The notes under the pieces: generated by a model
Seen by the model: only the letters and a program-made list of their open reading frames with translations
What the model was told of the DNA's origin: nothing
Databases searched by the model: none
Shown: positions 950 through 15,920 of the stretch, piece after piece
Layout of the letters: every line of letters starts with the position of its first letter
Numbering within the stretch: the stretch's first letter is position 1
Assembly (NCBI RefSeq): GCF_900110535.1
Contig: NZ_FOJA01000001.1
Location: 1,561,393 to 1,585,392 of the forward strand
Origin: Halobacterium jilantaiense
GTDB lineage: Archaea; Halobacteriota; Halobacteria; Halobacteriales; Halobacteriaceae
Direction of reading: 5' to 3'
Length of the DNA: 24,000 bases
Position numbers and translations under genes: made by a program

Positions 950-2506
950 TCAGCGGTAGAGGTCGAGGCGCTGGAAGACCGCGCCGAGCAGCACCGCAAT
1001 CGGGATGATTTCGAGGCGACCCACCCACATGTTGAGTATCAGCATCGCCTTCGCGGTACCGGGCATCGTCGGCCCGGTGATGCCGGAGTCCAGTCCGACG
1101 TTGCTCTGCGCGCTCATCACGTCGAAAATGACGTACTCCAGCGGATGGCCGGGCGAGAGCACGCGCAGTAGAACGGCGACGCCGATTGCGAGGAACGCGA
1201 CCCAGAGCACGAACACGACGGTCGCCTCCGTGTACTCGCTCTCGGCCTGTTTCTCGCTGAGTTTCCGCTCGCCGAGTTTCATGTACCGGATGGCCGAATC
1301 CGGTCGGAAGACCTCCCGAATCTGCCAGACCGTCCCGCGGACGAGCGTCGCGACGCGAATCAGTTTGAGGCCGCTAGTCGTCGAACCCGCAGCGCCCCCG
1401 GTGAGCATCCCCAGGCACGTCAGTAGGGTGGCACCGGCGCTCCAGACCTGCTCGGTGCCGCCGCCGACGGTCGCGCTCCCGAAGCCGGTGTTCGAGGTCG
1501 CGGAGACGAACTGGAAGAGGCTCACCCGGAACGTCTCCTCGAACGTGGCGTACTGGCCGTTCGCGTACAGGATGCCCGTGAGGGCGAGCGACCCGGCACC
1601 GAACCAGAGGAACACCCACCGGGTCTGGAGGTCGGTGTAGAAGTTCCGCAGTTCGCCCTTGAACAGCAGGTAGTGGATGGGGAACGCGATGCTGCCCGCG
1701 ACCATGATGGGGACGGTCGCGTACTCGATGAGCGGGCTGCCGTAGTGCCCGATGGAGTCCGCGTGGACCGAGAAGCCGCCGGTCGCGATGCCCGTCATCG
1801 CGTGGTTGATGGCGTCCCACAGCGGCATCCCGACCAGGAGGTAGAGCAGGATGGAGCCGAGCGTGAGCCCGACGAATATCTTCCAGATTTCTCGGACGGT
1901 CGTCACGATGCTCGGGTGAATCTTCTCCGAGCGCGCTTCGCTCTCGTAGAGCGTGTACGACCCGCTGCTCCCGCCGCCCCGACGGAGAATCGCGACCGTC
2001 AGGACGATGACGCCGACGCCGCCCACCCACTCGATGAGCGACCGCCACCAGTGCAGCGACCGCGGCAGTTTCTCCTCGACGGCGGCCATCGTCAGCCCGG
2101 TTCCGGTGAACCCGCTCATGCTCTCGAAGACGGCGTCGAGGGGGTGGCGGAAGATGGCCGTCGTCGCGTCCATCGGCGGCGTGTTCGCCCACACCGGGAA
2201 CGGGTCGACCTGAATCGTCCACGCGACGAAGAGGAACGGCAGTCCGCCGAGGACGCCGACCAGCATCCACGCGGTCGCCGCCGTCACCATCGCGTCCCGC
2301 TTCGCCGGCGGGTCGGCGTCCCGGTAGCGGCGCGCCAGCGCGGTGCCGACGCCCGCCGCCACGACCGCCGACCCGAGGAACGCCGGAATGGCGTAGAACT
2401 CGGCGTTCGCGGCTGCGACGACGACGGAGGCGACCATCATCAGTGAGACGGCCTGCACGATGCGGCCGACGTCGCGGCCGACGGTCCGCGTGTCGACTCG
2501 CATCAT
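950..2506 (-). CDS. trkH: TrkH-family K+ uptake membrane subunit
   Basis: 518-aa ORF with ATG at 2506 and many hydrophobic segments. It has four pore-loop motifs typical of TrkH/KtrB/HKT: SGFTGTGLT, TGGFSVH, TSNTGFG and QSNVGLD. It lies 115 nt downstream of trkA on the same strand. Confidence 0.92.
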   Translation of the reverse strand: MMRVDTRTVGRDVGRIVQAVSLMMVASVVVAAANAEFYAIPAFLGSAVVAAGVGTALARRYRDADPPAKRDAMVTAATAWMLVGVLGGLPFLFVAWTIQVDPFPVWANTPPMDATTAIFRHPLDAVFESMSGFTGTGLTMAAVEEKLPRSLHWWRSLIEWVGGVGVIVLTVAILRRGGGSSGSYTLYESEARSEKIHPSIVTTVREIWKIFVGLTLGSILLYLLVGMPLWDAINHAMTGIATGGFSVHADSIGHYGSPLIEYATVPIMVAGSIAFPIHYLLFKGELRNFYTDLQTRWVFLWFGAGSLALTGILYANGQYATFEETFRVSLFQFVSATSNTGFGSATVGGGTEQVWSAGATLLTCLGMLTGGAAGSTTSGLKLIRVATLVRGTVWQIREVFRPDSAIRYMKLGERKLSEKQAESEYTEATVVFVLWVAFLAIGVAVLLRVLSPGHPLEYVIFDVMSAQSNVGLDSGITGPTMPGTAKAMLILNMWVGRLEIIPIAVLLGAVFQRLDLYR

Positions 2507-2621
2507 GTGTCGTCGGTCGACGGCAGCGCGCGCTCGCCCCCGGTGTTCGAGCGGCCGGCGAGTGTTCGGCGGCGACCGTAGAGTGCGTTGTACATTGGTA
2601 GTGAGAGTGTCGAGCAGTCGG

Positions 2622-3311
2622 TTACGCGGAGTGGTCCTCGTCGTGGCCGAAGACGTCGGTGAGTTCGGGGTCGGCTCCGGTGGCCGAGTAGACGGTCAGG
2701 AGGTCGCCGGCCTCGATTCGCGTGTCGCCGCGCGGCGTCAGCGGGCCGTTCCCGTCCCCGTCCCGGTCGATGGCTACGATGAGGACATCGTCCGAGAGGA
2801 TGTCGGCGTCGCCGGCTTCCGTGAGCGTCTTCCCGGCGATGGGCGCGTCCGCCGTGACCGTGATTTCGAACACCTCGGCCTCCTCGCCGATGCGCATGTA
2901 GTCGACGATGGCCGGACGGGAGACCGCCCGGTAGAGGTGACCCGCGATGAGCTGCTGTGGGTTCTCGATGGTGTTCACGCCGATCTGGCGGAAGAGGTTC
3001 ATGTGTTCGGGGTCGTGGACGACCGACGTGATCGCCGGGATATCGAACTCCTCGGCGAGCAGGCAGACCATCACGTTCGTCGCGTCCTGGTCGGTCGTCG
3101 AGATAATGGCGTCCGCCCGGTCCGCCCCGGCGTCCGCCAGCGTTTCCTTGACCGTCGCGTCGTCGTTCAGCACGAGACAGTCGTGGGCGCTGGCGATCTC
3201 GTCGGCCTTCTGTGCGTCCCGCTCGACGACCACGACCTCGTTTCCGGACCTGGTCGCGATGTCTATCAGCGGCGTTCCGATGTCGCCTGCGCCGACAACG
3301 ATGATGTACAT
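2622..3311 (-). CDS. trkA: TrkA K+ uptake regulatory subunit (RCK_N/TrkA_N plus RCK_C/TrkA_C)
   Basis: 229 aa with ATG at 3311. The N-terminal Rossmann motif is MYIIVVGAGDIGTPL...EVVVVERD. The C-terminal RCK_C-like segment is EVFEITVTADAPIAGKTLTEA...VAIDRDG...PRGDTRIEAGDLLTVYS. Confidence 0.9.
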   Translation of the reverse strand: MYIIVVGAGDIGTPLIDIATRSGNEVVVVERDAQKADEIASAHDCLVLNDDATVKETLADAGADRADAIISTTDQDATNVMVCLLAEEFDIPAITSVVHDPEHMNLFRQIGVNTIENPQQLIAGHLYRAVSRPAIVDYMRIGEEAEVFEITVTADAPIAGKTLTEAGDADILSDDVLIVAIDRDGDGNGPLTPRGDTRIEAGDLLTVYSATGADPELTDVFGHDEDHSA

Positions 3312-3428
3312 GAGTAGTGTGGCTGTAGAGAGGGTGTCTGCCGGACCGTTCAGTCGTGATGTGGGTTCGCTGTGTCGGGTGCTGTCGCCGAACGGGCGAC
3401 CCGTCGGCGGCGCGACGACGGCTGCACG

Positions 3429-3776
3429 TCAGTCACCGTCACCGCGGACGGCTCCGAGGTAGTGCCACCGGTACTTGCCGGCCGACGCGCCGTCCACGTC
3501 CGGCTCGTACTGCACCCGGTACGCGAACGGCCCGCTGTCGGCACCCGTCTCGGCCGGCCGCTCGACGACGACAATCGTGTAACCGTCGTGGTCCTCGGTG
3601 CGGACGAGTTCCTCGCCCTCGCGCGCCTTGATTGCGTCCGTCAGAGACGGCTTCGCTCCGAGGCGTCGCTGGGCGTACTCGACGACCGCGCGGAGCTCCC
3701 GGTCGCTGCAGTCGTCGAGGACAGTCCGGACCTGTTCGGGGACGTCGCCGGCCGTGTCTGTGTCGGGTCCTGTCAT
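3429..3776 (-). CDS. Hypothetical acidic cytoplasmic protein (115 aa), function unknown
   Basis: ATG at 3776. The composition is acidic and protein-like (MTGPDTDTAGDVPEQVRTVLDDCSDRELRAVVEYAQRRLG...YRVQYEPDVDG...), with GC-rich third codon positions like the neighbouring genes. I recognise no motif. Confidence 0.6.
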   Translation of the reverse strand: MTGPDTDTAGDVPEQVRTVLDDCSDRELRAVVEYAQRRLGAKPSLTDAIKAREGEELVRTEDHDGYTIVVVERPAETGADSGPFAYRVQYEPDVDGASAGKYRWHYLGAVRGDGD

Positions 3777-3910
3777 GGTTCGTGGGTCGCAGTGCCGTCT
3801 GCGCCGGCCGCCGGCCGTAGCGACCGGGCGGTGACTACCGGACTCGTGGGCCCGGCGTCTGGCTACGACACCGCTAGATTATCGCTGCAAAATAAAGATT
3901 GGTATCCAGA

Positions 3911-3954
3911 TTTCGGAGGCGAAACAGAACAGCACGTATTTTTTCGGTGCGAAA
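3911..3954. promoter_or_regulatory. Pair of inverted repeats, TTTCG-N4-CGAAA (3911-3924) and TTTCG-N3-CGAAA (3942-3954). Candidate operator in the divergent promoter region upstream of the Lrp/TrkA_C regulator
   Basis: Read directly: tttcggaggcgaaa and tttcggtgcgaaa. The centres are about 30 nt apart. They lie in the only AT-rich part of the 3777-4054 intergenic region. Confidence 0.3.
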
Positions 3955-4025
3955 TAGCTGTCGAGTGTGGCGAGCTGTCTGACGACGGACCTGACCGACC
4001 GACGCCAGTCGCGCCCATCGGGGAG

Positions 4026-4032
4026 TAAATAT
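4026..4032 (+). promoter_or_regulatory. TATA-like element (taaatat) for the Lrp/TrkA_C regulator gene
   Basis: It sits 23-29 nt upstream of ATG 4055, matching the leaderless spacing seen at other genes in this window. Confidence 0.4.
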
Positions 4033-4054
4033 GCGCGCTAATCGTACGTCCGGT

Positions 4055-4798
4055 ATGGACCACCGGGTCGACGAAATCGACAAGCGCGTCCTCTACCACC
4101 TGTCGCGGGACGCCCGGAACACGACCGCCGCAGACGTCGCCGAAGAGATGGACGTGACGCCGGCGACCATCCGGAACCGCATCCACCAGCTCGAAGCCGC
4201 GGGCATCCTCCGGGGGTACCTCGCCGACGTCAACTACAAAGCCATCGAGGGGCACGTCACGTACCAGTTCAGTTGCACGGCCCCGATTCCCGAACGGGAC
4301 CGGCTCGCGCAGGCCGCCCTCGACGTCTCCGGCGTCGTCTCCGTCCGCGAACTGATGACGGGCAAGACCAACCTCGCCGTGACGGCTGTCGGGTCGAACA
4401 CCGACGACATCAGCCGCATCGCCGGTGAGCTCTCCGACGCCGGGCTGGAGATCGAGGACGAGAGCGTCGTGGAGAACGAGTACCACCAGCCGTACAACCC
4501 CTTCGGCCCCGACGACGTCCCCGTCGGCCCGTCGCTGACCGACTTCATGAGCCTCGCGGGCGGTGCCGAAGTCGTCGAGTTCACCGTCTCCGAGGGTGCC
4601 GACGTCGCCGGGCTGACCATCGAGCAGGCGGTCGAAGACGGACTGCTCGCCGACGAGATGCTGGTCGTCGGCATCGAGCGCGACGGCGGCGTCCTCACGC
4701 CGAAAGGCGAGACCGTCATCCGGACCGGCGACGTCGTCTCGCTGTTCTCGAAGTCCACGCTGGAGCGAGACGCCCTCGAAGTGTTCGGCACGCAGTGA
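4055..4798 (+). CDS. Lrp/AsnC-family transcription regulator with a C-terminal TrkA_C (RCK_C) domain (Trh-type regulator)
   Basis: The N-terminus MDHRVDEIDKRVLYHLSRDARNTTAADVAEEMDVTPATIRNRIHQLEAAGIL is an HTH_AsnC domain. The middle part, LADVNYKAIEGHVTYQFSCT...LAVTAVGSN, is a RAM-like domain. The C-terminus VVEFTVSEGADVAGLTIEQA...VVGIERDGGVLTPKGETVIRTGDVVSLFSK is an RCK_C domain. The track start at 4031 is also an ATG. I prefer 4055 because taaatat at 4026-4032 sits 23-29 nt upstream of it. Confidence 0.85.
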   Translation: MDHRVDEIDKRVLYHLSRDARNTTAADVAEEMDVTPATIRNRIHQLEAAGILRGYLADVNYKAIEGHVTYQFSCTAPIPERDRLAQAALDVSGVVSVRELMTGKTNLAVTAVGSNTDDISRIAGELSDAGLEIEDESVVENEYHQPYNPFGPDDVPVGPSLTDFMSLAGGAEVVEFTVSEGADVAGLTIEQAVEDGLLADEMLVVGIERDGGVLTPKGETVIRTGDVVSLFSKSTLERDALEVFGTQ

Positions 4799-4844
4799 TG
4801 ACCACCGGCGACGAGCCGACTGACTCGGCGGTCGGACTCCGCGC

Positions 4845-5567
4845 TCAGTCCCGCAGGACGACCACCGGAACGTCGACCCGGTCGGCGAGCCGCCGGTAGA
4901 CACCGCCCAGAAACGCCGACTCAGAGGGACTCTCGCCCGTCTCTCCCATCACCACGAGGTTGTGTCGCCGCGCGCGCTTCGCGACCGCCACACTCGGGTT
5001 ATCGCCGATGTCGACGGTCACGTCGACGACGTCCTCCGCGAATCCGGCCTCGACGAGGTCCGCACGGACGCTCTCGAGCATCGCCTCGCCCGCGTCGGCC
5101 GCAGCCCGGTCGGGCGCGACGTGGTACAGCTCCAGCGTGAACATCGAGTGTCGATTCAGGCCGCCGAGAAATGTCAGGAGGTCCGCCCGGCGGCGGTCGT
5201 CCCGGAGCGGCACCAGGACGTTCGCCCACTTCGTGATGTTGCCCCCCATCAACACCGCGTCCACGTCGGACTCGTCCGCGATGCGGTCCTGGAGTTTCGC
5301 CTCCGTCGCCCCCGACTCTCCGAAGAACAACTGCACCGACGTGGACGCGCCGCCACGGCTGAACGCGGCAGCCAACTCGTAGAGGACCGACTGCGCGTCC
5401 GGTTCCCGGCTCGCGCGCACCGCCTCCCGGTCGGCCTCCTCCGGGACCTCCCAGTACCCGAACAGCACGACGTCGAACCCGCTCAAGCCGACGATGTTCT
5501 CGTCGTCCAGCGGGTAGACGTCCGGCTCCGGGAACACCACGGGGACGAGCAGCGTTGTTCTGGACAT
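4845..5567 (-). CDS. Universal stress protein family protein (tandem USP-like domains)
   Basis: The track ORF extends to 5732, but the first 55 codons are Arg/Pro/Ala-rich and not protein-like. I trimmed it to ATG 5567 (cat at 5565-5567), giving MSRTTLLVPVVFPE.... The C-terminal half has the USP signature NLVVMGETGES...FLGGVYRRLADRVDVPVVVLRD. Confidence 0.8.
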   Translation of the reverse strand: MSRTTLLVPVVFPEPDVYPLDDENIVGLSGFDVVLFGYWEVPEEADREAVRASREPDAQSVLYELAAAFSRGGASTSVQLFFGESGATEAKLQDRIADESDVDAVLMGGNITKWANVLVPLRDDRRRADLLTFLGGLNRHSMFTLELYHVAPDRAAADAGEAMLESVRADLVEAGFAEDVVDVTVDIGDNPSVAVAKRARRHNLVVMGETGESPSESAFLGGVYRRLADRVDVPVVVLRD

Positions 5568-5846
5568 CGCCAACGCCTCCGAGTGGGTCGACCGGCCAGA
5601 AAGCCCTATCGGAGGCAGCAGGGGAGCCGCAGCCGACGGTGGCCGCACACCGTCCCCGTGCGTCGCAGCGTGAGCCGCGGGCGCTATCCCCGCGAGACGA
5701 GCACTCCAGCGTGTTCGGACTGACGGTGCCACACTGACGAAGCGGACCGTCGCACCTCGTGACGAACTCCGGATACCGAGCGTTCCGAGAGCAGGACAAG
5801 CGGAGCTCGGCTGCCACTCAGCCAGAGAGTCCCCGTGATAGTTCTG

Positions 5847-7235
5847 TCAGTGGTGGTCGTGCCCGTCCGAGATGACCGGGTCGGCTGTGGCGAACTCCCC
5901 GGGTGTGTCTTCGAACGCTCGCTCGCACGCCTTCGAGCAGAAGTAGTAGGTCTCGCCGTCGTACGTGGCGCTCGCTCCGTCGTCGTCGGTCCGCATCCCG
6001 CAGACTGGGTCCCGGTACTGTCCGGGCGCTCCCAGCCCGCGCCGGTACACGTAGAAGAGGAACCCGGAGACCGCGAACGCGATCACGTTGAGGTAGAACG
6101 TGTAGTTCAGTTCGAAGTACGTCTGCTCACTCGCAGTCACGCCGGCGGCGAGATCGGGGACGATTCCCAGCACGTCGAACAGTTGCTCCATGAGGAAGCC
6201 CGTGAACGCCATCGTCACGAAGAACACGCCGAAGATGTAGGCCATCACCGTCCAGCCGTAGTACTTCCGGTAGAAGTTGAGCACGGGGACCGTGATGAGG
6301 TCGGCGTAGACGAACGCGATGACGCCCGCGAAGCTGACACCGCCGCCCCAGAGCGCGACGGCGAACGGGACGTTCCCCATGCTGCCGACGAAGCTGACGA
6401 CGGCGATGGCAACGCCCATGACCGCGTTCTCGGCGCTGACCAGCAAGCCGTCGCCCTGCAAGAAGAGCGTGTTCCAGACCCACTGGGGCACGAACACGAT
6501 GACGAACCCCGCAATCAGGAACCCCGCAATCACGTCCTCGTAGAGCATCGACCACTCCTTGCGGTACTGGTTGGCGACCCTGTACCAGCCGCCCCACGAT
6601 AGCAGTTCGTCCCGCCAGCCGCCGCTGCTTGCCACCTCCTGCTGGTAGGTCTCCATGCACCCCGCCGAGCAGAACTGCAGGGTTTCGCCGCCGTCTGTGA
6701 CGAGTGAGTACTCCTCTTTGCCGTCCATCCCGCACGTCGGGTCCGCCGAAACACCGTGGTCGCGGTCGCGCTGATTCAGTTCGGCGCGGACCTCGTCGAA
6801 TAGATTCTCCGGGAGCGTCAGGTGGACGATGACCGCCATCACCGCGATGAGAAGCAGGCCGCCGAGTAACTCGGCCACGAGGAACTCCCAGCCGAGCAGG
6901 AGCAGAATCATCAGCCCGAGCTCGACGATGAGGTTCGTCGACGCGAACATGAACGCGAGGAAGTTCACGACGTGCGCCCCCTTCTTGAACAGCCCCTTCC
7001 CGATGGCGACGGCCCCGAAGCTACAGCCACTGCTGGCCGCACCGAACAGCGTTGCCTTGGTGACACCCGTGACGTCGCCCTCACCCAGCACGGCCGCCAT
7101 CCGCTCTTTCGAGACGTAGACCTGGACGAGACTGGTTATCACCAGCCCCATGATGATCGCCCACGCCGCGGTCCAGAGGAAGCCGACACCGATTCGGAGC
7201 GCCTCGACTACTGTCGTGCCCAGTGTCGCCAGCAT
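5847..7235 (-). CDS. Predicted permease (DUF318/ArsP-type, COG0701-like) with one internal and one C-terminal YHS (TRASH-like) metal-binding domain
   Basis: 462 aa with ATG at 7235. The membrane core contains GAASSGCSFGAVAIGKGLFKKGA in the first half and GSMGNVPFAVALWGGGVSFAG in the second. Two YHS-type motifs are present: DPTCGMDGKEEYSLVTDGGETLQFCSAGCMETY (residues ~165-198, nt 6642-6743) and DPVCGMRTDDDGASATYDGETYYFCSKACERAF (residues ~409-444, nt 5904-6011). The tail is His-rich (DGHDHH). The start lies 10 nt downstream of the SHOCT gene stop. Confidence 0.8.
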   Translation of the reverse strand: MLATLGTTVVEALRIGVGFLWTAAWAIIMGLVITSLVQVYVSKERMAAVLGEGDVTGVTKATLFGAASSGCSFGAVAIGKGLFKKGAHVVNFLAFMFASTNLIVELGLMILLLLGWEFLVAELLGGLLLIAVMAVIVHLTLPENLFDEVRAELNQRDRDHGVSADPTCGMDGKEEYSLVTDGGETLQFCSAGCMETYQQEVASSGGWRDELLSWGGWYRVANQYRKEWSMLYEDVIAGFLIAGFVIVFVPQWVWNTLFLQGDGLLVSAENAVMGVAIAVVSFVGSMGNVPFAVALWGGGVSFAGVIAFVYADLITVPVLNFYRKYYGWTVMAYIFGVFFVTMAFTGFLMEQLFDVLGIVPDLAAGVTASEQTYFELNYTFYLNVIAFAVSGFLFYVYRRGLGAPGQYRDPVCGMRTDDDGASATYDGETYYFCSKACERAFEDTPGEFATADPVISDGHDHH

Positions 7236-7244
7236 ACCGGGGTG

Positions 7245-7628
7245 TCACTCGTTTTCGAGGCGTGCTCGGCGTCGTTCGTACTCCTCGTCACTCAGGTCGC
7301 CGCGGGCGTAGGCAGTCCGAAGTGCTTCGAGTGCCGGGTCGGTCGAGTCATCCTGCGTGGTCACCGCCCGGTAGCCGAGGTAGACGGCCCCGGCGAGGAC
7401 GGCGAGGAAGAGCAGTTGCATCCCCGCGCCGACGACCAGCATCCATCCGGGTGCCTCGCCACTTCCCCACATGTGGTCGCCCCACGATCCGCCCATCATC
7501 GGTCCGCCGCCCATCATCGGCCCGCCACCCATCACCCCGAACCCCATGACGAACGCGGGGACGACGATGAGGGCGACGGCAATTGCGAGCACGACCCAGA
7601 CGAGCTGTCGGTTGGTGTTAGTGGTCAT
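7245..7628 (-). CDS. Small two-TM membrane protein with a Met/Gly-rich loop and a C-terminal SHOCT domain
   Basis: The track start at 7649 is a GTG. ATG 7628 (cat at 7626-7628) gives MTTNTNRQLVWVVLAIAVALIVVPAF. The loop reads MGGGPMMGGGPMMGGSWGDHMWGSGE and is followed by a second TM segment. The C-terminus ALEALRTAYARGDLSDEEYERRRARLENE is SHOCT-like. A TTTAGA element (complement of 7668-7673) would place the TSS near 7644, downstream of the GTG. Confidence 0.75.
   Translation of the reverse strand: MTTNTNRQLVWVVLAIAVALIVVPAFVMGFGVMGGGPMMGGGPMMGGSWGDHMWGSGEAPGWMLVVGAGMQLLFLAVLAGAVYLGYRAVTTQDDSTDPALEALRTAYARGDLSDEEYERRRARLENE
7489..7536 (-). repeat. 18-bp tandem repeat (about 2.6 units) inside the SHOCT-protein CDS, encoding (GGGPMM)n
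   Basis: The units are ccgcccatcatcggtccg (7489-7506), ccgcccatcatcggcccg (7507-7524) and ccacccatcacc (7525-7536). Confidence 0.85.
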
Positions 7629-7805
7629 GGTAGCAGGGCCTCGAATCACGTCGAGACGCGGTCCCTATCTAAACTGACGGGCACATCGTTTAATGCAGTT
7701 GTTCTTACGGTATGAAGGATAACGAGTGCGTGAGTTTTGGAATCCAAGGCCAAAAACCCAGATACTGGCTCTCTGAGCAGGTGAGTAGAAACCGACTGGT
7801 GCGAC

Positions 7806-7818
7806 CGAAAGATAATAT
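7806..7818 (+). promoter_or_regulatory. BRE-like cgaaa plus TATA-like gataatat promoter of the heliorhodopsin gene (leaderless transcript predicted)
   Basis: The TATA-like element at 7811-7818 ends 24 nt before ATG 7842 and is immediately preceded by the purine-rich cgaaa. Confidence 0.5.
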
Positions 7819-7841
7819 CATCTGGTTGTGAAGAACGTCCC

Positions 7842-8615
7842 ATGGGACAGACCACACCAAGCGACTGGAATCTCCGGCGATTCAACGCAGCCATGGGAGT
7901 TCTACACTTCCTCCAAGGGGCGGTGATGCTCTCCCTGAGTTCCTCGCGGCGGTGGACGGTCACCGCGACGCGTCTCGACTTCAACACGGAGAGCCAGCAA
8001 CTCGAACCCGTCATGGAGTCGATCGGGACAATCGAGTTGGCCTATCTGGCGGTCGCATTCCTGTTCATCTCTGCAATCGCTCACGCGCTGATTGCAACGG
8101 TTCTCTACGACCGCTACGTCTCCTATCTCAAGCAGGGTACGAACCCGTACCGGTGGTACGAGTACGCAGTCAGCGCCTCGATAATGGTTGTCCTGATTGC
8201 CATGCTCGCGGGCGTCTGGGACCTGGGCACGCTAATCGCCCTGTTCGGTCTCGTCGCGGTGATGAATCTCTGCGGACTGGTCATGGAGCGCCACAATCGG
8301 CTGACTACGGATACGGACTGGAGTTCGTTCGTCGTCGGTTCGGTCGCCGGTGTCGTCCCGTGGCTCGTCATCGCCGTCTCCATCATCGGCACGTTCGACG
8401 CCGGCGGCAGCCCACCGGACTTCGTGATTATCATCTACGTCTCGCTGTTCGTCCTGTTCAATCTCTTCGCGATTAACATGCTGTTGCAGTACCTCGAGGT
8501 CTGGAAGTGGCAGGACTACCTGTACGGTGAGCGCGCGTACATCGTGTTGAGCCTCGTGGCGAAGTCGCTGCTGGCCTGGCAGGTCTACTTCGGCGCGCTG
8601 AACTCACCAGTGTAG
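7842..8615 (+). CDS. Heliorhodopsin-family retinal protein (7 TM)
   Basis: 257 aa with ATG at 7842. A cgaaa + gataatat element (7806-7818) sits 24-36 nt upstream. These blocks match my recollection of heliorhodopsin 48C12: RFNAAMGVLHFLQ, NPYRWYEYAVSASIMVVLIA, VAGVVPW, LFNLFAINMLLQY and GERAYIVLSLVAKSLLAWQVYFGAL. Lys241 (aag 8562-8564) lies in the last TM segment and Glu107 (gag 8160-8162) in the third. Confidence 0.85.
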   Translation: MGQTTPSDWNLRRFNAAMGVLHFLQGAVMLSLSSSRRWTVTATRLDFNTESQQLEPVMESIGTIELAYLAVAFLFISAIAHALIATVLYDRYVSYLKQGTNPYRWYEYAVSASIMVVLIAMLAGVWDLGTLIALFGLVAVMNLCGLVMERHNRLTTDTDWSSFVVGSVAGVVPWLVIAVSIIGTFDAGGSPPDFVIIIYVSLFVLFNLFAINMLLQYLEVWKWQDYLYGERAYIVLSLVAKSLLAWQVYFGALNSPV

Positions 8616-8802
8616 CGTCCGCGACGCGAGCCGATAGCGGCGAGAGCGGTCGCTGACAGACGCCGATCTCTACTGGGCGTCACCGGACTCACAGCGAGCA
8701 CAATCGCACACGTGGCTCTCGAACGAACCGACGCACACTGCGTTCAGTTCCCTCCCGTCCCGCTGCCATCTGCTGGTTTCGGTTAGAATAATCGGCCACT
8801 GA

Positions 8803-8820
8803 CGCGAAGGCGTTTGAACC
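8803..8820 (-). repeat. Degenerate copy (16 of 18 nt) of the tRNA-Arg 3' part (T-arm plus 3' acceptor strand)
   Basis: cgcgaaggcgtttgaacc (8803-8820) compares with cgcgaagggatttgaacc in the tRNA gene (8908-8925), in the same orientation and 105 bp apart. The flanks do not fold into a tRNA. Confidence 0.5.
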
Positions 8821-8903
8821 GATCCGAGACTCGCTGCGCTCGTCTGGTCCGGCGGGAATCCATCCCGGTTTTCGTCGCTCCGCGTTGGCGTCGCGACAGA
8901 ACA

Positions 8904-8976
8904 CGGGCGCGAAGGGATTTGAACCCCTGACATCTTGGTCCGGAACCAAGTGCTCTGTCCGCTGAGCTACGCGCCC
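8904..8976 (-). tRNA. tRNA-Arg (anticodon CCG), 73 nt, no intron, CCA not encoded
   Basis: The reverse complement folds by hand into a full cloverleaf. The segments are GGGCGCG TA GCTC AGCGGACA GAGC A CTTGG TTCCGGA CCAAG ATGTC AGGGG TTCAAAT CCCTT CGCGCCC G. All stems pair, with one G-U in the T stem, and the T loop is TTCAAAT. Confidence 0.93.
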
Positions 8977-9002
8977 TCGGTGTCCAGTAGTGGGGTCTCG
9001 GG

Positions 9003-9007
9003 TATAA
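9003..9007 (-). promoter_or_regulatory. TATA-like element (TTATA on the minus strand) for tRNA-Arg
   Basis: tataa at 9003-9007 lies 27-31 nt upstream of the tRNA 5' end (8976). Confidence 0.4.
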
Positions 9008-9022
9008 CGGTTGTGAGTCGCG

Positions 9023-10483
9023 TCAGGCGGGGTCGGGCTGGTCGTCCTCGGGGGGCGTGTCGCTGTCGCCGTCGCTCTCGTCGTCGTCGGCGTCGACGAT
9101 TGTGTTCTTCCAGGTGCCCCGCGTGAACCAGAGCGCGGCGGCGATAGCGCCGACGATGTTCCCGAGCGCCATGCCGACCCAGATGCCGGTCGCGCCCCAG
9201 CCGAGGACGAACGCGAAGACGTAGACGGTGGGGACGCGGCCGAGCCAGAGCGCAATCATGGAGATGACCATCGAGGTCTTGGTGTTGCCGGCACCGCGGA
9301 ACGCGCCGAGCATCACTTGGAGAATCCCGACGAAGACGAACTCCACCGAGCGGATGCGGAGGTACGTCGTGCCGTAGTCGATAATTTCGGCGGCGTTCTC
9401 GCTGCCGGGCGCGAGGAACACCGAGACGATCGGTTCGGGGAAGACGGCGGCGACGATGGCGACGCCGAAGAGGACGGCGGCGGCGAACTTCGCGGCGAGC
9501 CAGACGGCGCGCTCGGCGCGTTCGGTGTTCTTGGCACCGAGGTTCTGGCCGACCATCGTGTTCGTCGCGCGGCCGAGCCCCATCGCTGGTAGGAACACCA
9601 GCGAGATGAGGCGGTTGCCGAGGCCGAACGCACCAACGACGGCCGGCGGGAAGCTCGCGACCATCGCGGTGAGCGTGATCATCGCGAGCGCGGTGGTGGA
9701 CTGCTCGGCGGCGCTCGGCGTGCCGACGCGGACGATGCGGGAGATCATCGAGAAGTCGGGGTAGAACTGCGAGAGTTCGATTTCGGGGCCGGCGTTCGTG
9801 TAGAAGAGGACGTAGACGCCGATAACGGCGGCGACGGCGCGCGCGAAGATGGTCGCGACGGCGGCACCTGCGATACCCATCTCGGGGAACGGCCCGTAGC
9901 CGAAGATGAGGAACGGGTCGAGGATGACGTTGATAGCGACGCTGACGAACATCACGATCATCGGCGTCCGGGTGTTGCCGTACCCCCGCATCAGCGAGGA
10001 GAACACGAAGAACCCGAACAGCGCGGGCATCCCGAGGAAGAAGACCTCCATGTACTCGGCGGCCTTCGGCACGACGAGTGCTGCGGTCTCGGGGTCGGCT
10101 GGCAGGAGCGCGAGCATGTCTCCGGTGACGAAGTGCCCGACGACGCCGAGGACAGCTGAGAGACTGACCACGAAGCCAAGCGTCTGAGCGGCGACCTTCC
10201 CCGCAGAGCCTTCGCTGTCGGCACCAGTGAACTGCGCGACGAGGATGGAGCCCGCGGTCGTGAAGCCGCCACCGACGGAGATGAGGAAGAACACGAGCGG
10301 GAACGCCAGCGAGATGGCGGCCACCGCGTTCCCGGAGAACTGGCCGAGCCAGAAGGTGTCGGCGAGGTTGTACGCGACCTGCAGCAACTGGATGACGACA
10401 ATCGGCCACGCCAACTCGACCATCGGCCCGAGGAGGTCCCCCTCGGTGATGGACGACGACGCAGAAGTAGAGGACTCGCTCAC
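9023..10483 (-). CDS. MATE-family efflux transporter
   Basis: 486 aa with about 12 hydrophobic segments. The N-terminal block ITEGDLLGPMVELAWPIVVIQLLQVAYNLADTFWLGQ is typical of MATE/NorM/DinF. The C-terminal tail is acidic. The start is a GTG at 10483, directly after an in-frame stop. A GTTTTGAA element (complement of 10510-10517) lies 27-34 nt upstream. The next ATG (10423) would remove the conserved N-terminal block. Confidence 0.85.
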   Translation of the reverse strand: MSESSTSASSSITEGDLLGPMVELAWPIVVIQLLQVAYNLADTFWLGQFSGNAVAAISLAFPLVFFLISVGGGFTTAGSILVAQFTGADSEGSAGKVAAQTLGFVVSLSAVLGVVGHFVTGDMLALLPADPETAALVVPKAAEYMEVFFLGMPALFGFFVFSSLMRGYGNTRTPMIVMFVSVAINVILDPFLIFGYGPFPEMGIAGAAVATIFARAVAAVIGVYVLFYTNAGPEIELSQFYPDFSMISRIVRVGTPSAAEQSTTALAMITLTAMVASFPPAVVGAFGLGNRLISLVFLPAMGLGRATNTMVGQNLGAKNTERAERAVWLAAKFAAAVLFGVAIVAAVFPEPIVSVFLAPGSENAAEIIDYGTTYLRIRSVEFVFVGILQVMLGAFRGAGNTKTSMVISMIALWLGRVPTVYVFAFVLGWGATGIWVGMALGNIVGAIAAALWFTRGTWKNTIVDADDDESDGDSDTPPEDDQPDPA

Positions 10484-10597
10484 TACGCAGTGCCAGGAGT
10501 CGAGGGTAGTTCAAAACTCCGGAACGCACAGAACCGGCAATCCGAGCGCCTTACCGGAAGAATAGCTGCCCGAGAGCGGACGGCGGCGGGCTCGCTG

Positions 10598-11176
10598 TCA
10601 GGGTGTCTCGTTCGTCTCCAGGGAGAACTCCGCCGTCGGGTGGGCCGTACACGTCAGCATGTAGCCCTCCTCGATCTCCGAGTCGCCCAGCGACTCGTTG
10701 TTCGAGTGACGGATGTACTCGCTGGCGTCCTCGCCGCTGGCGACGCGGCCCCCACAGGACACGCACTGGCCCTGGCGGCAGGCGTACGGGAGGTCCCAGC
10801 CCTCGTCCTCGCCGGCGTCCAGCAGCGTCTCGTTGTTCGCGACCTCGATGGTCTCGCCCTCGTTGACGAACTCGATCTCGTAGTACTCGACCTCGTCGTC
10901 CGCGATGTCGTCGGGGTCGAAGCCCTCGTCTTCCTCCTCGGAGTCCTCGAGTTCGCCCTCCGCGCCGCCCGCGACAGCGCCAGCGCCACCGCCGCCGCCG
11001 ATGGAGCGGTTGTACGGCTCCGGGAAGTCAGTCTCGGGCACCGTGGCGGCTCGCTGCTCGAGGACGTCGGCAGCGATGTCCTCCGGGGCGGGATTCGACG
11101 CCCCCTTCGCGAAGTGGAGGACGACGAACGTGAGCGCCGCCCCCAGGCCGATCGCGAGGCCCAGTGTGTTCACCAT
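10598..11176 (-). CDS. Plant-type [2Fe-2S] ferredoxin domain protein with an N-terminal transmembrane anchor and a Gly-rich/acidic linker
   Basis: 192 aa with ATG at 11176. The TM segment is LGLAIGLGAALTFVVLHF. The linker reads GGGGGAGAVAGGAEGELEDSEEEDEGFDPDD. The cluster motif is PYACRQGQCVSCGG (C-x4-C-x2-C) plus the distal MLTC. Confidence 0.85.
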   Translation of the reverse strand: MVNTLGLAIGLGAALTFVVLHFAKGASNPAPEDIAADVLEQRAATVPETDFPEPYNRSIGGGGGAGAVAGGAEGELEDSEEEDEGFDPDDIADDEVEYYEIEFVNEGETIEVANNETLLDAGEDEGWDLPYACRQGQCVSCGGRVASGEDASEYIRHSNNESLGDSEIEEGYMLTCTAHPTAEFSLETNETP

Positions 11177-11358
11177 GCGCGGCGGTACGGAAGCGCAGTT
11201 TAACAGTATTGTGATTGCGCGACGGCGCGGCTTCCTCGGTTTTGGCCGTTGAGATCGCTCAGAACGGATTATTGATTCCTCTACTGATAGAGAGCTGAGT
11301 TAGGTAGCCACCTAGAAACTGTGAAACCGCTCAACTCGGTGGAGCTAGCTCCGCCGAT

Positions 11359-12198
11359 CTACAGGTTGTTGTCTATATATGTCCGAATATCACTCCGGGT
11401 ACAGTCCGAAACAAATTCTGCTTGTTTGTCAGCGCTATCGGAAACAGCACCACAGTCAGCATACCACTCGTAGGAATTCCGGGCCAGCAGCGAGTATTTA
11501 TGCGTCCCGCCATTCTCCCTCGTAGTTGCATCATGATAGGTGGCGTTGTGGAGTGTTGCCAAGGCCCGGAATGCTGACCCGACGGCGAATGTCTCTTCGT
11601 AGAAACCGCCTGTGTCGTACGCTTTGGGCGCATCCTCGAAGAACGCCATGTCAACTATTGCTACCTTCCCACTGGAGCCTCCCGCAGTTCCCCAAACTGC
11701 ACTGCCATCGCCGCGTACCATATCGTTCCTGTCATTATAGTCCAGAATCAGGAACGCATCCCGCCCATCGTATTTGACCCAGTCCGAGTCCTCTTTCATG
11801 TGCGAGTCGATGTCCATCGCTCGCTCTTGCAGACCAGTACTATTCGTCGCACTCTCTCGGATTGGTTGAGACAGAGGCGCGCCCTGAATCTCGCGGCTGT
11901 ATTCGTTGCCATCTTCGATCTCGTCCGCCCAGATTTGCTTGACCCCCTCGGCAATAACGGTCGTCAGATAGTTCGGTTCAATTTTATCCCTGTTTTCCAG
12001 ACGATCGACTAGGTCGTTGTTCTCCGGATCCCAGTTGTTTTCCAATTGAGTTGTTCTATAGACAGGGATTCTATCCGCGTTAACGGCCTGGGCATTTGAA
12101 GACGCAAACACCGGAAGGGAACAGGCACCTCCGGCGAATGCGAGTGATCTGAGGACACTACGCCGGCTCACACCAGAACTGCCGGGGTTTTCCGACAT
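11359..12198 (-). CDS. Orphan secreted protein, probably a Tat-exported lipoprotein, function unknown
   Basis: The track start at 12225 is a TTG. ATG 12198 (cat at 12196-12198) gives MSENPGSSGVSRRSVLRSLAFAGGACS, with a twin-arginine motif and a lipobox-like GGAC. Codon usage is atypical, with many A/T-ending codons. Single 60-nt lines counted by hand give 43-57% GC. Confidence 0.7.
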   Translation of the reverse strand: MSENPGSSGVSRRSVLRSLAFAGGACSLPVFASSNAQAVNADRIPVYRTTQLENNWDPENNDLVDRLENRDKIEPNYLTTVIAEGVKQIWADEIEDGNEYSREIQGAPLSQPIRESATNSTGLQERAMDIDSHMKEDSDWVKYDGRDAFLILDYNDRNDMVRGDGSAVWGTAGGSSGKVAIVDMAFFEDAPKAYDTGGFYEETFAVGSAFRALATLHNATYHDATTRENGGTHKYSLLARNSYEWYADCGAVSDSADKQAEFVSDCTRSDIRTYIDNNL

Positions 12199-12225
12199 AT
12201 TTCCCCGTTTCAGACGGAGATACAA

Positions 12226-12348
12226 AACGTTTTTTGCTGTATTTAGTCAGCGGAATCTAATTTTTTCGTTAAGCAATTAAATTTTATTTATAAATAATTA
12301 CAATAAGCGAACTCTAGTCGTTGGCCTAAGCAGAAGGCTTTTTTCTCC
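12226..12348. other. Extremely AT-rich divergent intergenic region containing a 14-bp AT palindrome ttatttataaataa (12284-12297)
   Basis: Line 12241-12300 has 11 G+C of 60 by hand count. The region lies between the orphan lipoprotein gene (minus strand) and the DJ-1/PfpI gene (plus strand). Confidence 0.8.
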
Positions 12349-12366
12349 GTGCCGCAGCTGACGTAC

Positions 12367-12960
12367 ATGACCATCAAGATTGCAACCATCGTCTTTGAGG
12401 GGTTCGACGAGCTCGACGCAGTCGCGCCCTACGAGGTGTTCCAGACGGCCGCCGAGATGGGTGCCGACCTGGACGTGTCGATGCGCACGCTCGTGCCGGA
12501 CGAGGGTGTGACCGCACGCCACGGCCTGACCGTCGAGCCGGACGACGTGCTGCTCGGCACGCCCGACCTCGTCGTCGTCCCCGGTGGCGGGTGGAACGAC
12601 CGCGAATCCCGGGGTGTCTGGTCGGAGGTCGAGAACGGCACGCTCCCCGAGCGCCTCGACACGCTCCACGAGGGCGGCGCGACCATCGCTTCGGTCTGCA
12701 CGGGCGCGATGCTGCTCGCAGACGCCGGTCTGCTCGACGGCCGGCCCGCGACCACCCACGAGTCCGCGAAAGACGACCTGCGCGAGGACTACCCCGACGT
12801 GGACGTCCGCGACGACCGCTTCGTCGACGACGGCACGATTCTCACCGCGGGCGGCGTCACCGCCGGCATCGACCTCGCGCTCCACGTCGTCGAGCGCGAG
12901 TGCTCGCCGGGCATCGCCGAGCAGGTCGCCGACGAAATCGAGTACGACTCCGGGTACTGA
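12367..12960 (+). CDS. DJ-1/PfpI (ThiJ) family protein
   Basis: The track start at 12349 is a GTG. ATG 12367 gives MTIKIATIVFEGFDELDAVAPYEVF. The nucleophile-elbow motif is IASVCTGAMLLADAGLLDGRPATTH, followed by LTAGGVTAGIDLALHVV. Confidence 0.85.
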   Translation: MTIKIATIVFEGFDELDAVAPYEVFQTAAEMGADLDVSMRTLVPDEGVTARHGLTVEPDDVLLGTPDLVVVPGGGWNDRESRGVWSEVENGTLPERLDTLHEGGATIASVCTGAMLLADAGLLDGRPATTHESAKDDLREDYPDVDVRDDRFVDDGTILTAGGVTAGIDLALHVVERECSPGIAEQVADEIEYDSGY

Positions 12961-13983: not shown

Positions 13984-15834
<1,851 letters not shown>

Positions 15835-15920
15835 TGCGAATCGAAACACTCGGTGGGCCGAAGTGGATTACGGAAGCGGCGACCGAAAGGCTGGCGTACC
15901 GGCTGCTCGATACCGCCGGT

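Follow-up and report, generated by a model that had tools for sequence, protein, structure and literature searches.

The closest described relatives of the gene considered here are two heliorhodopsins (HeRs) of solved structure: TaHeR, from a Thermoplasmatales archaeon (PDB 6IS6, 7CLJ, 7U55), and 48C12, the founding actinobacterial HeR (PDB 6SU3, 6UH3). HeRs share the seven-helix retinal-protein fold and the helix-7 lysine of the type-1 rhodopsins of haloarchaea, which are bacteriorhodopsin, halorhodopsin, and the sensory rhodopsins I and II, but they differ in having Glu rather than Asp as the counterion, in carrying the motif SxxxK rather than DxxxK, and, by homology, in their inverted topology. 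Subfamilies of archaeal HeRs have been defined (Kovalev et al. 2020, PMC7049168), and the HeRs of "aerobic Halobacterota" were placed in cluster C12 by Bulzu et al. 2021, who also provide a supplementary figure on HeR neighborhoods in Halobacteria. Bacterial HeRs are reported (PMC11109279) to have as partners two enzymes, glutamine synthetase and photolyase, as well as an ABC multidrug exporter. Here, we describe the HeR gene found at 7842..8615 of a 24,000-nucleotide stretch of the chromosome of Halobacterium jilantaiense, a stretch referred to below as the window. Taken as a whole, the analysis points to a functional HeR of the archaeal type that would act as a non-pumping photosensor and whose gene is an accessory, probably acquired one, an account to which we assign a probability of about 85%.

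The open reading frame (ORF) lies on the plus strand, begins with ATG, and encodes 257 amino acids (aa). An initial annotation of the window had already assigned the 257-aa product to the HeR family, and profile searches bear this out over its full length. Pfam PF18761 (Heliorhodopsin) is matched across profile positions 1-242/242 (E = 5.6e-99; 330.8 bits, with a cutoff of 26.7), and the NCBIfam equivalog NF038020, "heliorhodopsin HeR," matches with 349.1 bits against a cutoff of 100 over positions 1-244/244. The annotation had proposed trying bacteriorhodopsin-like models alongside the HeR model; only the latter is matched, with no Pfam match of the protein to the bacteriorhodopsin-like family PF01036 at an E value of ≤1. 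Among solved structures, the best match is TaHeR (6is6; E = 5.5e-79, 52% identity over 244 aligned residues), followed by 48C12 (6su3; E = 7e-45, 39% identity). The four peptides that had been set beside 48C12, RFNAAMGVLHFLQ, NPYRWYEYAVSASIMVVLIA, VAGVVPW, and GERAYIVLSLVAKSLLAWQ, all occur in the ORF product, and the 48C12 strings quoted with them agree with the PDB sequence of 48C12 as aligned. Could the protein be a type-1 rhodopsin after all? This identity is ruled out by the SxxxK motif, the Glu counterion, the missing PF01036 match, and a structural TM-score to type-1 rhodopsins of only 0.5-0.6 (see below). The gene is an intact heliorhodopsin gene of the archaeal, TaHeR-like type and is seemingly expressed, and that its product is a functional HeR is close to certain.

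How well is the chromophore site preserved? With residue numbers taken from a HMMER alignment mapped onto 48C12, K241 and E107 fall on K241 and E107 of 48C12, so that the two numberings are essentially identical at the Schiff-base Lys and counterion Glu, just as had been claimed. The His pair named together with them also stands, H22 corresponding to H23 of 48C12 and H81 to H80. K241, whose position relative to the last helix had been raised as a point to check, is inside that helix (residues 226-254 in an AlphaFold2 model); S237 is in the same helix, and E107 is in helix 3. Also kept relative to 48C12 are N15, Q25, S77, R91, Y92, N101, R104, W105, Y108, S111, S113, D127, and E149 and, further along, P173, W174, S201, Q216, K222, Y226, E230, R231, S237, S242, W246, and Q247. 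Viewed from the side of 48C12, its residues N16, H23, H80, S76, S111, S237, E149, and E230 are all conserved. Essentially the entire residue set of Kovalev et al. 2020 (PMC7049168), which covers surface clusters as well as residues of the Schiff-base region and of the polar cytoplasmic cavity, is retained, and the polar Schiff-base cavity is complete (H22, H81, N15, N101, Y108, R104, E230, and Y92). Two motifs quoted for heliorhodopsins (PMC9601134) are likewise present, ESL as E107/S111/L118 and SxxxK as S237..K241. An alignment of 25 HeRs, each haloarchaeal judging from its name or its closest similarity, has 84 invariant columns, among them H22, S77, H81, E107, S111, E149, S237, and K241.

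Where the pocket departs from 48C12, it resembles TaHeR: N138 of 48C12 is V, I142 is N, and Q213 is M, and TaHeR shares N142 and M213, both marks of the archaeal subfamilies of Kovalev et al. 2020, along with the Lys, the Glu, and the two His residues. Asn142 has been tied to several HeR subfamilies, including archaeal subfamily 4 (Kovalev et al. 2020, PMC7049168). Outside the pocket, Y179, a dimer interface residue of 48C12, is replaced by S, and P40 of the AB loop is not kept, the H. jilantaiense protein having T39 there. Compared with TaHeR, its EF loop is extended by an insertion of four residues (FDAGGSPP versus AESVP).

The fold tells the same story. An AlphaFold2 model built from the 25-HeR alignment, of moderate confidence (pLDDT, 74.6; pTM, 0.66), consists of seven long helices and a two-stranded hairpin within residues 37-65 (strands 37-48 and 53-65) that corresponds to the HeR AB loop. 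A Foldseek comparison with the PDB places TaHeR (6is6) first, with TM-scores of 0.86/0.88 and a root-mean-square deviation of 2.0 Å. The top matches are all HeRs, with TM-scores of 0.79-0.88 and 48C12 at about 0.8, while type-1 rhodopsins trail at 0.5-0.6 with 13-17% identity. Judging from the 52% identity to TaHeR, the N terminus would be cytoplasmic, giving the inverted topology. In 48C12, the positive residues are all cytoplasmic, a "positive-inside, negative-outside" pattern (PMC7049168). The loops of the H. jilantaiense protein carry seven Lys and Arg residues on the N-terminal side versus three on the opposite side, or nine versus three if R104 and R231 are counted, an indirect count whose bias runs in the direction expected for a cytoplasmic N terminus.

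What would such a protein do? By homology with TaHeR and 48C12, it is expected to use K241 to bind all-trans retinal, E107 serving as the counterion, and to run a slow photocycle without pumping ions. The signal would then be passed by direct contact, altering the activity of a partner protein. As the HeR gene is monocistronic and has no conserved neighbor (described below), that partner is probably encoded elsewhere in the genome. For this signaling or regulatory mechanism, modeled on the bacterial precedents, we see even odds. The retinal itself is plausibly available in the host, given that the bop gene has been annotated in H. jilantaiense (PMC6465532).

Two other functions would use the same chromophore site differently. 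One is ion transport, with the protein serving as a proton channel or pump as in some viral HeRs. Proton transport is reported for viral HeRs in PMC11109279 and PMC12873467, and the fold and chromophore site are common to those proteins and this one. However, the H. jilantaiense HeR groups with TaHeR and 48C12 rather than with the divergent viral subfamily 2, and it retains the residues typical of HeRs. Moreover, the 2018 work of Pushkarev and the 2019 work of Shihoya reportedly detected no transport for 48C12 or TaHeR. Ion transport by this protein is thus very improbable.

The other is a light harvester with two chromophores, in which an external carotenoid bound at a lateral fenestration serves as a second antenna, so that the protein captures light rather than signals. 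A preprint (10.1101/2025.11.27.691015) proposes the fenestration motif in 48C12 positions as aromatic residues at 162/206, small residues at 166/210, Gly169, and Asn207. The motif is intact here as F163, S167, G170, F206, N207, and A210, with G170, F206, and N207 invariant in the 25-HeR alignment. Haloarchaea are, of course, rich in carotenoids. Their main one, bacterioruberin, is however a C50 compound without the keto or hydroxy ring of the known antennae, and the proposal leaves unsaid what the absorbed energy would be used for. It relies on docking and sequence statistics, and by the preprint's own count the motif occurs in 91% of HeRs and therefore does not discriminate between functions. 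We regard a carotenoid antenna as unlikely and continue with the photosensor.

Is this gene a native member of the Halobacterium chromosome? To follow the argument, the features around it are needed (window coordinates):

4797..8902, between the HTH-TrkA_C gene and the tRNA-Arg gene: species-specific variable segment of 4.1 kb, with the Usp, ArsP/YHS, SHOCT, and HeR genes
4845-5732, minus strand: Usp gene (Pfam)
5847-7235, minus strand: gene for an ArsP-type permease with a C-terminal YHS/TRASH domain (Pfam)
7245-7649, minus strand: gene for a SHOCT protein (Pfam)
7805..7841, plus strand: conserved stretch upstream of HeR; the blastn match to loci L001 and L056 starts at 7805
7811-7818, at -31 to -24 from the ATG: TATA-like GATAATAT, conserved with the Halosimplex and Natrinema copies
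7842..8615, plus strand: HeR gene, 257 aa (Pfam, NCBIfam, and PDB matches; AlphaFold2 model)
8803-8820, 85 bp from the tRNA gene: 18 nucleotides resembling the tRNA-Arg 3' end (GCGAAGGCGTTTGAACCG), a 16/18 match to 8908-8925 (blastn-short E = 0.81, not significant alone)
8904..8976, minus strand: tRNA-Arg(CCG) gene (ARAGORN; Rfam, 68 bits), its 3' end facing HeR
13984-15849: ABC exporter gene (Pfam)

Three loci carrying the neighboring MATE gene were compared with the window: L082 (GCA_021729015.1, presumably Halobacterium), L083 (H. noricense), and L084 (H. hubeiense). In all three, MATE is followed by tRNA-Arg(CCG), and in none of them does the slot next to this tRNA gene hold a HeR gene. 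The DNA of L082, the closest relative, is 85-90% identical to the window over 1224-4796 and 8903-11232, leaving 4797-8902 unaligned; its own slot holds unrelated genes, which encode a Fic-domain protein, a Zn-ribbon protein, and a further protein of 441 aa, and the slots of H. noricense and H. hubeiense hold yet other genes. The synteny breakpoint relative to all three loci is at 8903, the 3' terminal base of tRNA-Arg(CCG). The HeR gene is therefore an accessory gene of this chromosome.

The affinities of the two neighbors differ as well. The closest homologues of the MATE protein are found in one genome assembly (92%), then in other Halobacterium species (77-85%), and then in Salarchaeum, Halarchaeum, and Halorussus, and this, together with the public identical HeR named for H. 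jilantaiense and encoded on a 2.82-Mb contig, upholds the placing of the window in a haloarchaeal-type chromosome. The closest relatives of the HeR, in contrast, belong to other genera and families, with overall identities of 88-93% in protein and 84-88% in DNA. At the protein level, these include Halosimplex amylolyticum and Natrinema mahii (91%), Halorubellus sp. JP-L1 (90%), and Halosimplex sp. TS25 (88%), whose copy is plasmid borne according to the genome collection, with Halosegnis (83%) and Halorhabdus (79%) more distant. The sole other Halobacterium HeR among the matches listed, that of H. rubrum, is only 60% identical. That MATE follows taxonomy while HeR does not favors acquisition.

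These proteins delineate a tight subclade of 257-258 aa and 77-93% identity that comprises Halorubellus sp. JP-L1, Halosimplex (TS25, rubrum, and amylolyticum), Natrinema mahii, Halosegnis marinus, and Halorhabdus salina. Most haloarchaeal HeRs, including that of "Halobacterium rubrum," fall in another subclade, whose members are 265-280 aa long, have an N-terminal extension, and are 58-63% identical to the H. jilantaiense protein.

How much DNA appears to have moved? With the Halosimplex and Natrinema loci, the window shares only 7805-8622, at 88% identity, which amounts to 37 nucleotides upstream plus the ORF. Those two copies are themselves 94% identical over 916 bp and have nothing else in common, and the seven closest HeR copies sit in seven distinct gene contexts. 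Since whole-chromosome average nucleotide identity (ANIb) within Halobacterium is 78-81% (PMC7002104), the 88% identity of a cassette shared between genera counts for acquisition. The closest HeR copies lie in patches of low GC content (0.48-0.57); the HeR gene in the window has a GC content of 0.60 and a third-codon-position GC (GC3) of 0.82, versus a GC3 of 0.86-0.96 in most of its neighbors. Upstream, GATAATAT is a putative TATA box for a leaderless mRNA, as its position and general knowledge of haloarchaeal promoters suggest; -31 to -24 is the expected place for a TATA box of a haloarchaeal leaderless transcript. If it is a promoter, then the mobile unit carries its own. Horizontal acquisition of the gene is thus probable: a cassette of promoter plus ORF, moving among haloarchaeal families, would have inserted at the 3' end of tRNA-Arg(CCG), in a slot that is hypervariable.

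A skeptic might hold that the gene is a nonfunctional passenger brought in by a genomic island, as it sits without a linked partner in a variable, lower-GC segment by a tRNA gene. But the ORF is intact, its catalytic and structural residues are all kept, and the promoter-like element is conserved. The ratio of nonsynonymous to synonymous divergence (dN/dS) lies between 0.08 and 0.12, with 0.11-0.12 against its close homologues, while dS is around 0.4. Purifying selection thus acts on the gene, and the ratio of about 0.1 over such a distance implies that it has been kept by selection since its transfer. We consider a mere passenger extremely improbable.

The account of an acquired photosensor does have points that weigh against it, and they concern each of its parts. 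On the side of function, the proposed partner is hypothetical, and a literature search found no experimentally characterized haloarchaeal HeR (retinal binding, topology, photocycle, or transport). The charge bias of the loops is modest, and, in contrast to 48C12, the presumed extracellular AB loop contains R36, R37, and R44; these three Arg residues also set the protein apart from TaHeR, as does its host, an aerobic extreme halophile. With an indirect charge count and three such residues, the topology is best treated as an inference from homology. On the side of acquisition, the closest genomic copies are at a dS of about 0.42, so the transfer was not recent, and neither its direction nor its donor can be assigned from the data. 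A Pfam scan found no integrase domain among the genes of the window. A repeat search for att sites yielded only low-complexity, GC-rich families, and blastn-short only the 18 nucleotides at 8803-8820. Finally, the survey of relatives used one genome per species and returned no 100% self-match for H. jilantaiense, whose genome seems to be missing from that collection or masked in it, so absences in it need care.

Two of these points deserve a further word. R36 is conserved across the 257-aa subclade, and at position 37 the relatives mostly carry Glu. As for the ends of the 4.1-kb segment, bounding by att repeats and an integrase was considered and rejected, the 16/18 match with an E value of 0.81 being all there was; the 8803-8820 stretch may be the remnant of an attachment site.

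In two Haloarchaeobius genomes (regions 6757-8780 of L005 and 6734-8780 of L012), a more distant HeR that is 65-68% identical is found about 1.2 kb past the same pair of MATE and tRNA-Arg(CCG) genes. Its orientation relative to the tRNA gene is reversed, and a 255-aa gene lies between them. This linkage could reflect either a recurrent landing site at the tRNA flank or an old association.

What else is in the neighborhood? By Pfam, the left part of the window reads response regulator/PAS, TrkH, TrkA, HTH-TrkA_C, Usp, ArsP/YHS permease, SHOCT, HeR, and tRNA-Arg(CCG). After the tRNA gene come MATE, a 2Fe-2S ferredoxin, DJ-1/PfpI, 6-phosphogluconate dehydrogenase, and the ABC exporter, and the right end holds an iron-type ABC importer (FecCD permease and binding protein) followed by a class-I tRNA synthetase. 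None of the Pfam-scanned genes of the 24-kb window is brp, blh, crt, or a type-1 opsin gene. The HeR gene is monocistronic, with the upstream SHOCT gene divergent and the downstream tRNA gene convergent. To look for recurrent neighbors, ORFs from 55 HeR loci of high GC content, almost all haloarchaeal, were clustered. The commonest family, a subtilisin-like protease judging from its sequence, occurs at 7 of the 55 loci, and the ABC exporter family occurs at 6. A conserved operon partner was thus rejected, as no neighbor family exceeds 7/55 loci, and this agrees with the report that most helR genes lie outside operons (PMC11109279).

The surroundings of some related copies can be described individually. 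In Halorubellus JP-L1 (L086, 6990-12233), there are genes for a P-type ATPase, DUF411 and DUF302 proteins, and a SHOCT homologue that is 58% identical, as well as an 84-bp fragment of the ArsP gene. A multicopper oxidase gene is found near HeR on a metagenome contig (L085, 754-1827), and an MgtE gene is found near HeR on the Halosimplex plasmid (L002, 6793-7812).

Could the HeR be a light-dependent regulator of a transporter encoded nearby, either the SHOCT and ArsP/YHS pair or the ABC exporter at 13984-15849? The idea has a precedent in the bacterial HeR-OmrDE pair, in which a HeR regulates a multidrug ABC exporter (PMC11109279). The family of the ABC exporter in the window lies within 8 kb of HeR at the 6 loci counted above, and metal or cation genes, ArsP/YHS and SHOCT in the window among them, seem to recur by the closest HeRs. 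However, the candidate genes do not form an operon with HeR, SHOCT being divergent, and the ABC exporter belongs to the conserved backbone, being present in the HeR-less L082 as well. The seven closest contexts lack any common neighbor, and the flexible islands of haloarchaea often hold metal genes anyway. Regulation of a nearby transporter is quite unlikely. A bolder version is that the 257-aa subclade is a mobile cassette of promoter plus gene that repeatedly enters flexible islands, here the hot spot at the 3' end of tRNA-Arg(CCG). Such islands often carry genes for metal or cation homeostasis (YHS permease, SHOCT, P-type ATPase, multicopper oxidase, and MgtE), and the cassette could place such transporters under the control of light in each host. 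If true, this would make it a portable photoregulatory module and provide a physiological role for archaeal HeRs, yet we consider it distinctly improbable. The photosensor acting on a partner encoded elsewhere remains the preferred reading.

How special is a HeR in Halobacteria? The initial annotation had implied rarity, which does not hold up. A 100%-identical protein is already public as "heliorhodopsin HeR [Halobacterium jilantaiense]," with dozens of named haloarchaeal HeRs alongside it. The survey of relatives covered 375 of them, and the counts here are from the best 80, of which at least 53 bear Halobacteria names, in addition to one probable haloarchaeon, A07HR60. These species-level genomes represent about 20 genera, including Halosimplex, Halorhabdus, Haloarchaeobius, Halovenus, Halolamina, Halapricum, Halovivax, Halorubellus, and Salinibaculum, as well as Halostella, Halosegnis, Natronoarchaeum, Halorubrum, Halorientalis, Natrinema, Natronomonas, and Halodesulfurarchaeum. 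The rest of the 80 are metagenome-assembled genomes (MAGs) of Thermoplasmata/Thermoplasmatota, Saccharibacteria, and a few other bacterial MAGs, one of them from Dehalococcoidales. Because the gene is annotated in public databases and HeRs of Halobacteria are in the literature (Bulzu et al. 2021), neither the H. jilantaiense HeR nor the haloarchaeal HeR family is new; what is added is the history of its acquisition at a tRNA gene.

Nor does the suggestion that this copy would make an attractive model stand as it was put, since it has no advantage over other cultured haloarchaea that carry a HeR, such as Halorubrum kocurii, Halolamina pelagica, Halovivax asiaticus, and Halosimplex carlsbadense. 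H. jilantaiense is one of many such hosts. Its practical value is that the HeR occurs in a cultured species whose genus has mature genetics, in a host that also encodes bacteriorhodopsin and in which retinal should consequently be available. Congeners that naturally lack a HeR at the same locus permit a clean knock-out/knock-in comparison, and the system retains some value for work on the physiological role of archaeal HeRs. The horizontal spread of a single gene and its hot spot beside a tRNA gene make a modest addition to what is known about the movement of rhodopsin genes among haloarchaea.

Mobility of HeRs is apparent further afield, too. In MAGs of Saccharibacteria, members of the candidate phyla radiation (L068, L070, L074, and L077-L080), there are HeRs whose identity to the haloarchaeal protein, 51-55%, is on a par with that of many Thermoplasmata copies. 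Judged by sequence similarity, this suggests transfer between domains inside this branch of the HeRs. A tblastn search of 50,697 phage records found no HeR match in haloviruses. In PLSDB, only two plasmids matched, NZ_CP141705.1 (Lactococcus petauri) and CP069395.1 (Chloroflexota), both with an annotated heR gene; the presence of heR on bacterial plasmids is further evidence that HeRs travel on mobile DNA. NZ_CP141705.1 is a mobilizable plasmid of 10.5 kb from a fish-associated Lactococcus petauri.

The window also contains a second insertion specific to H. jilantaiense, about 1.16 kb long, at 11233-12393 between the ferredoxin and DJ-1 genes. Its GC content is 0.49-0.56, and the corresponding flanks are 59 bp apart in L082. 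It holds an ORF at 11359-12225 on the minus strand, of about 280 aa, whose product has no Pfam match and an N terminus resembling a twin-arginine signal (SRRSVLRSLAFAGGAC).

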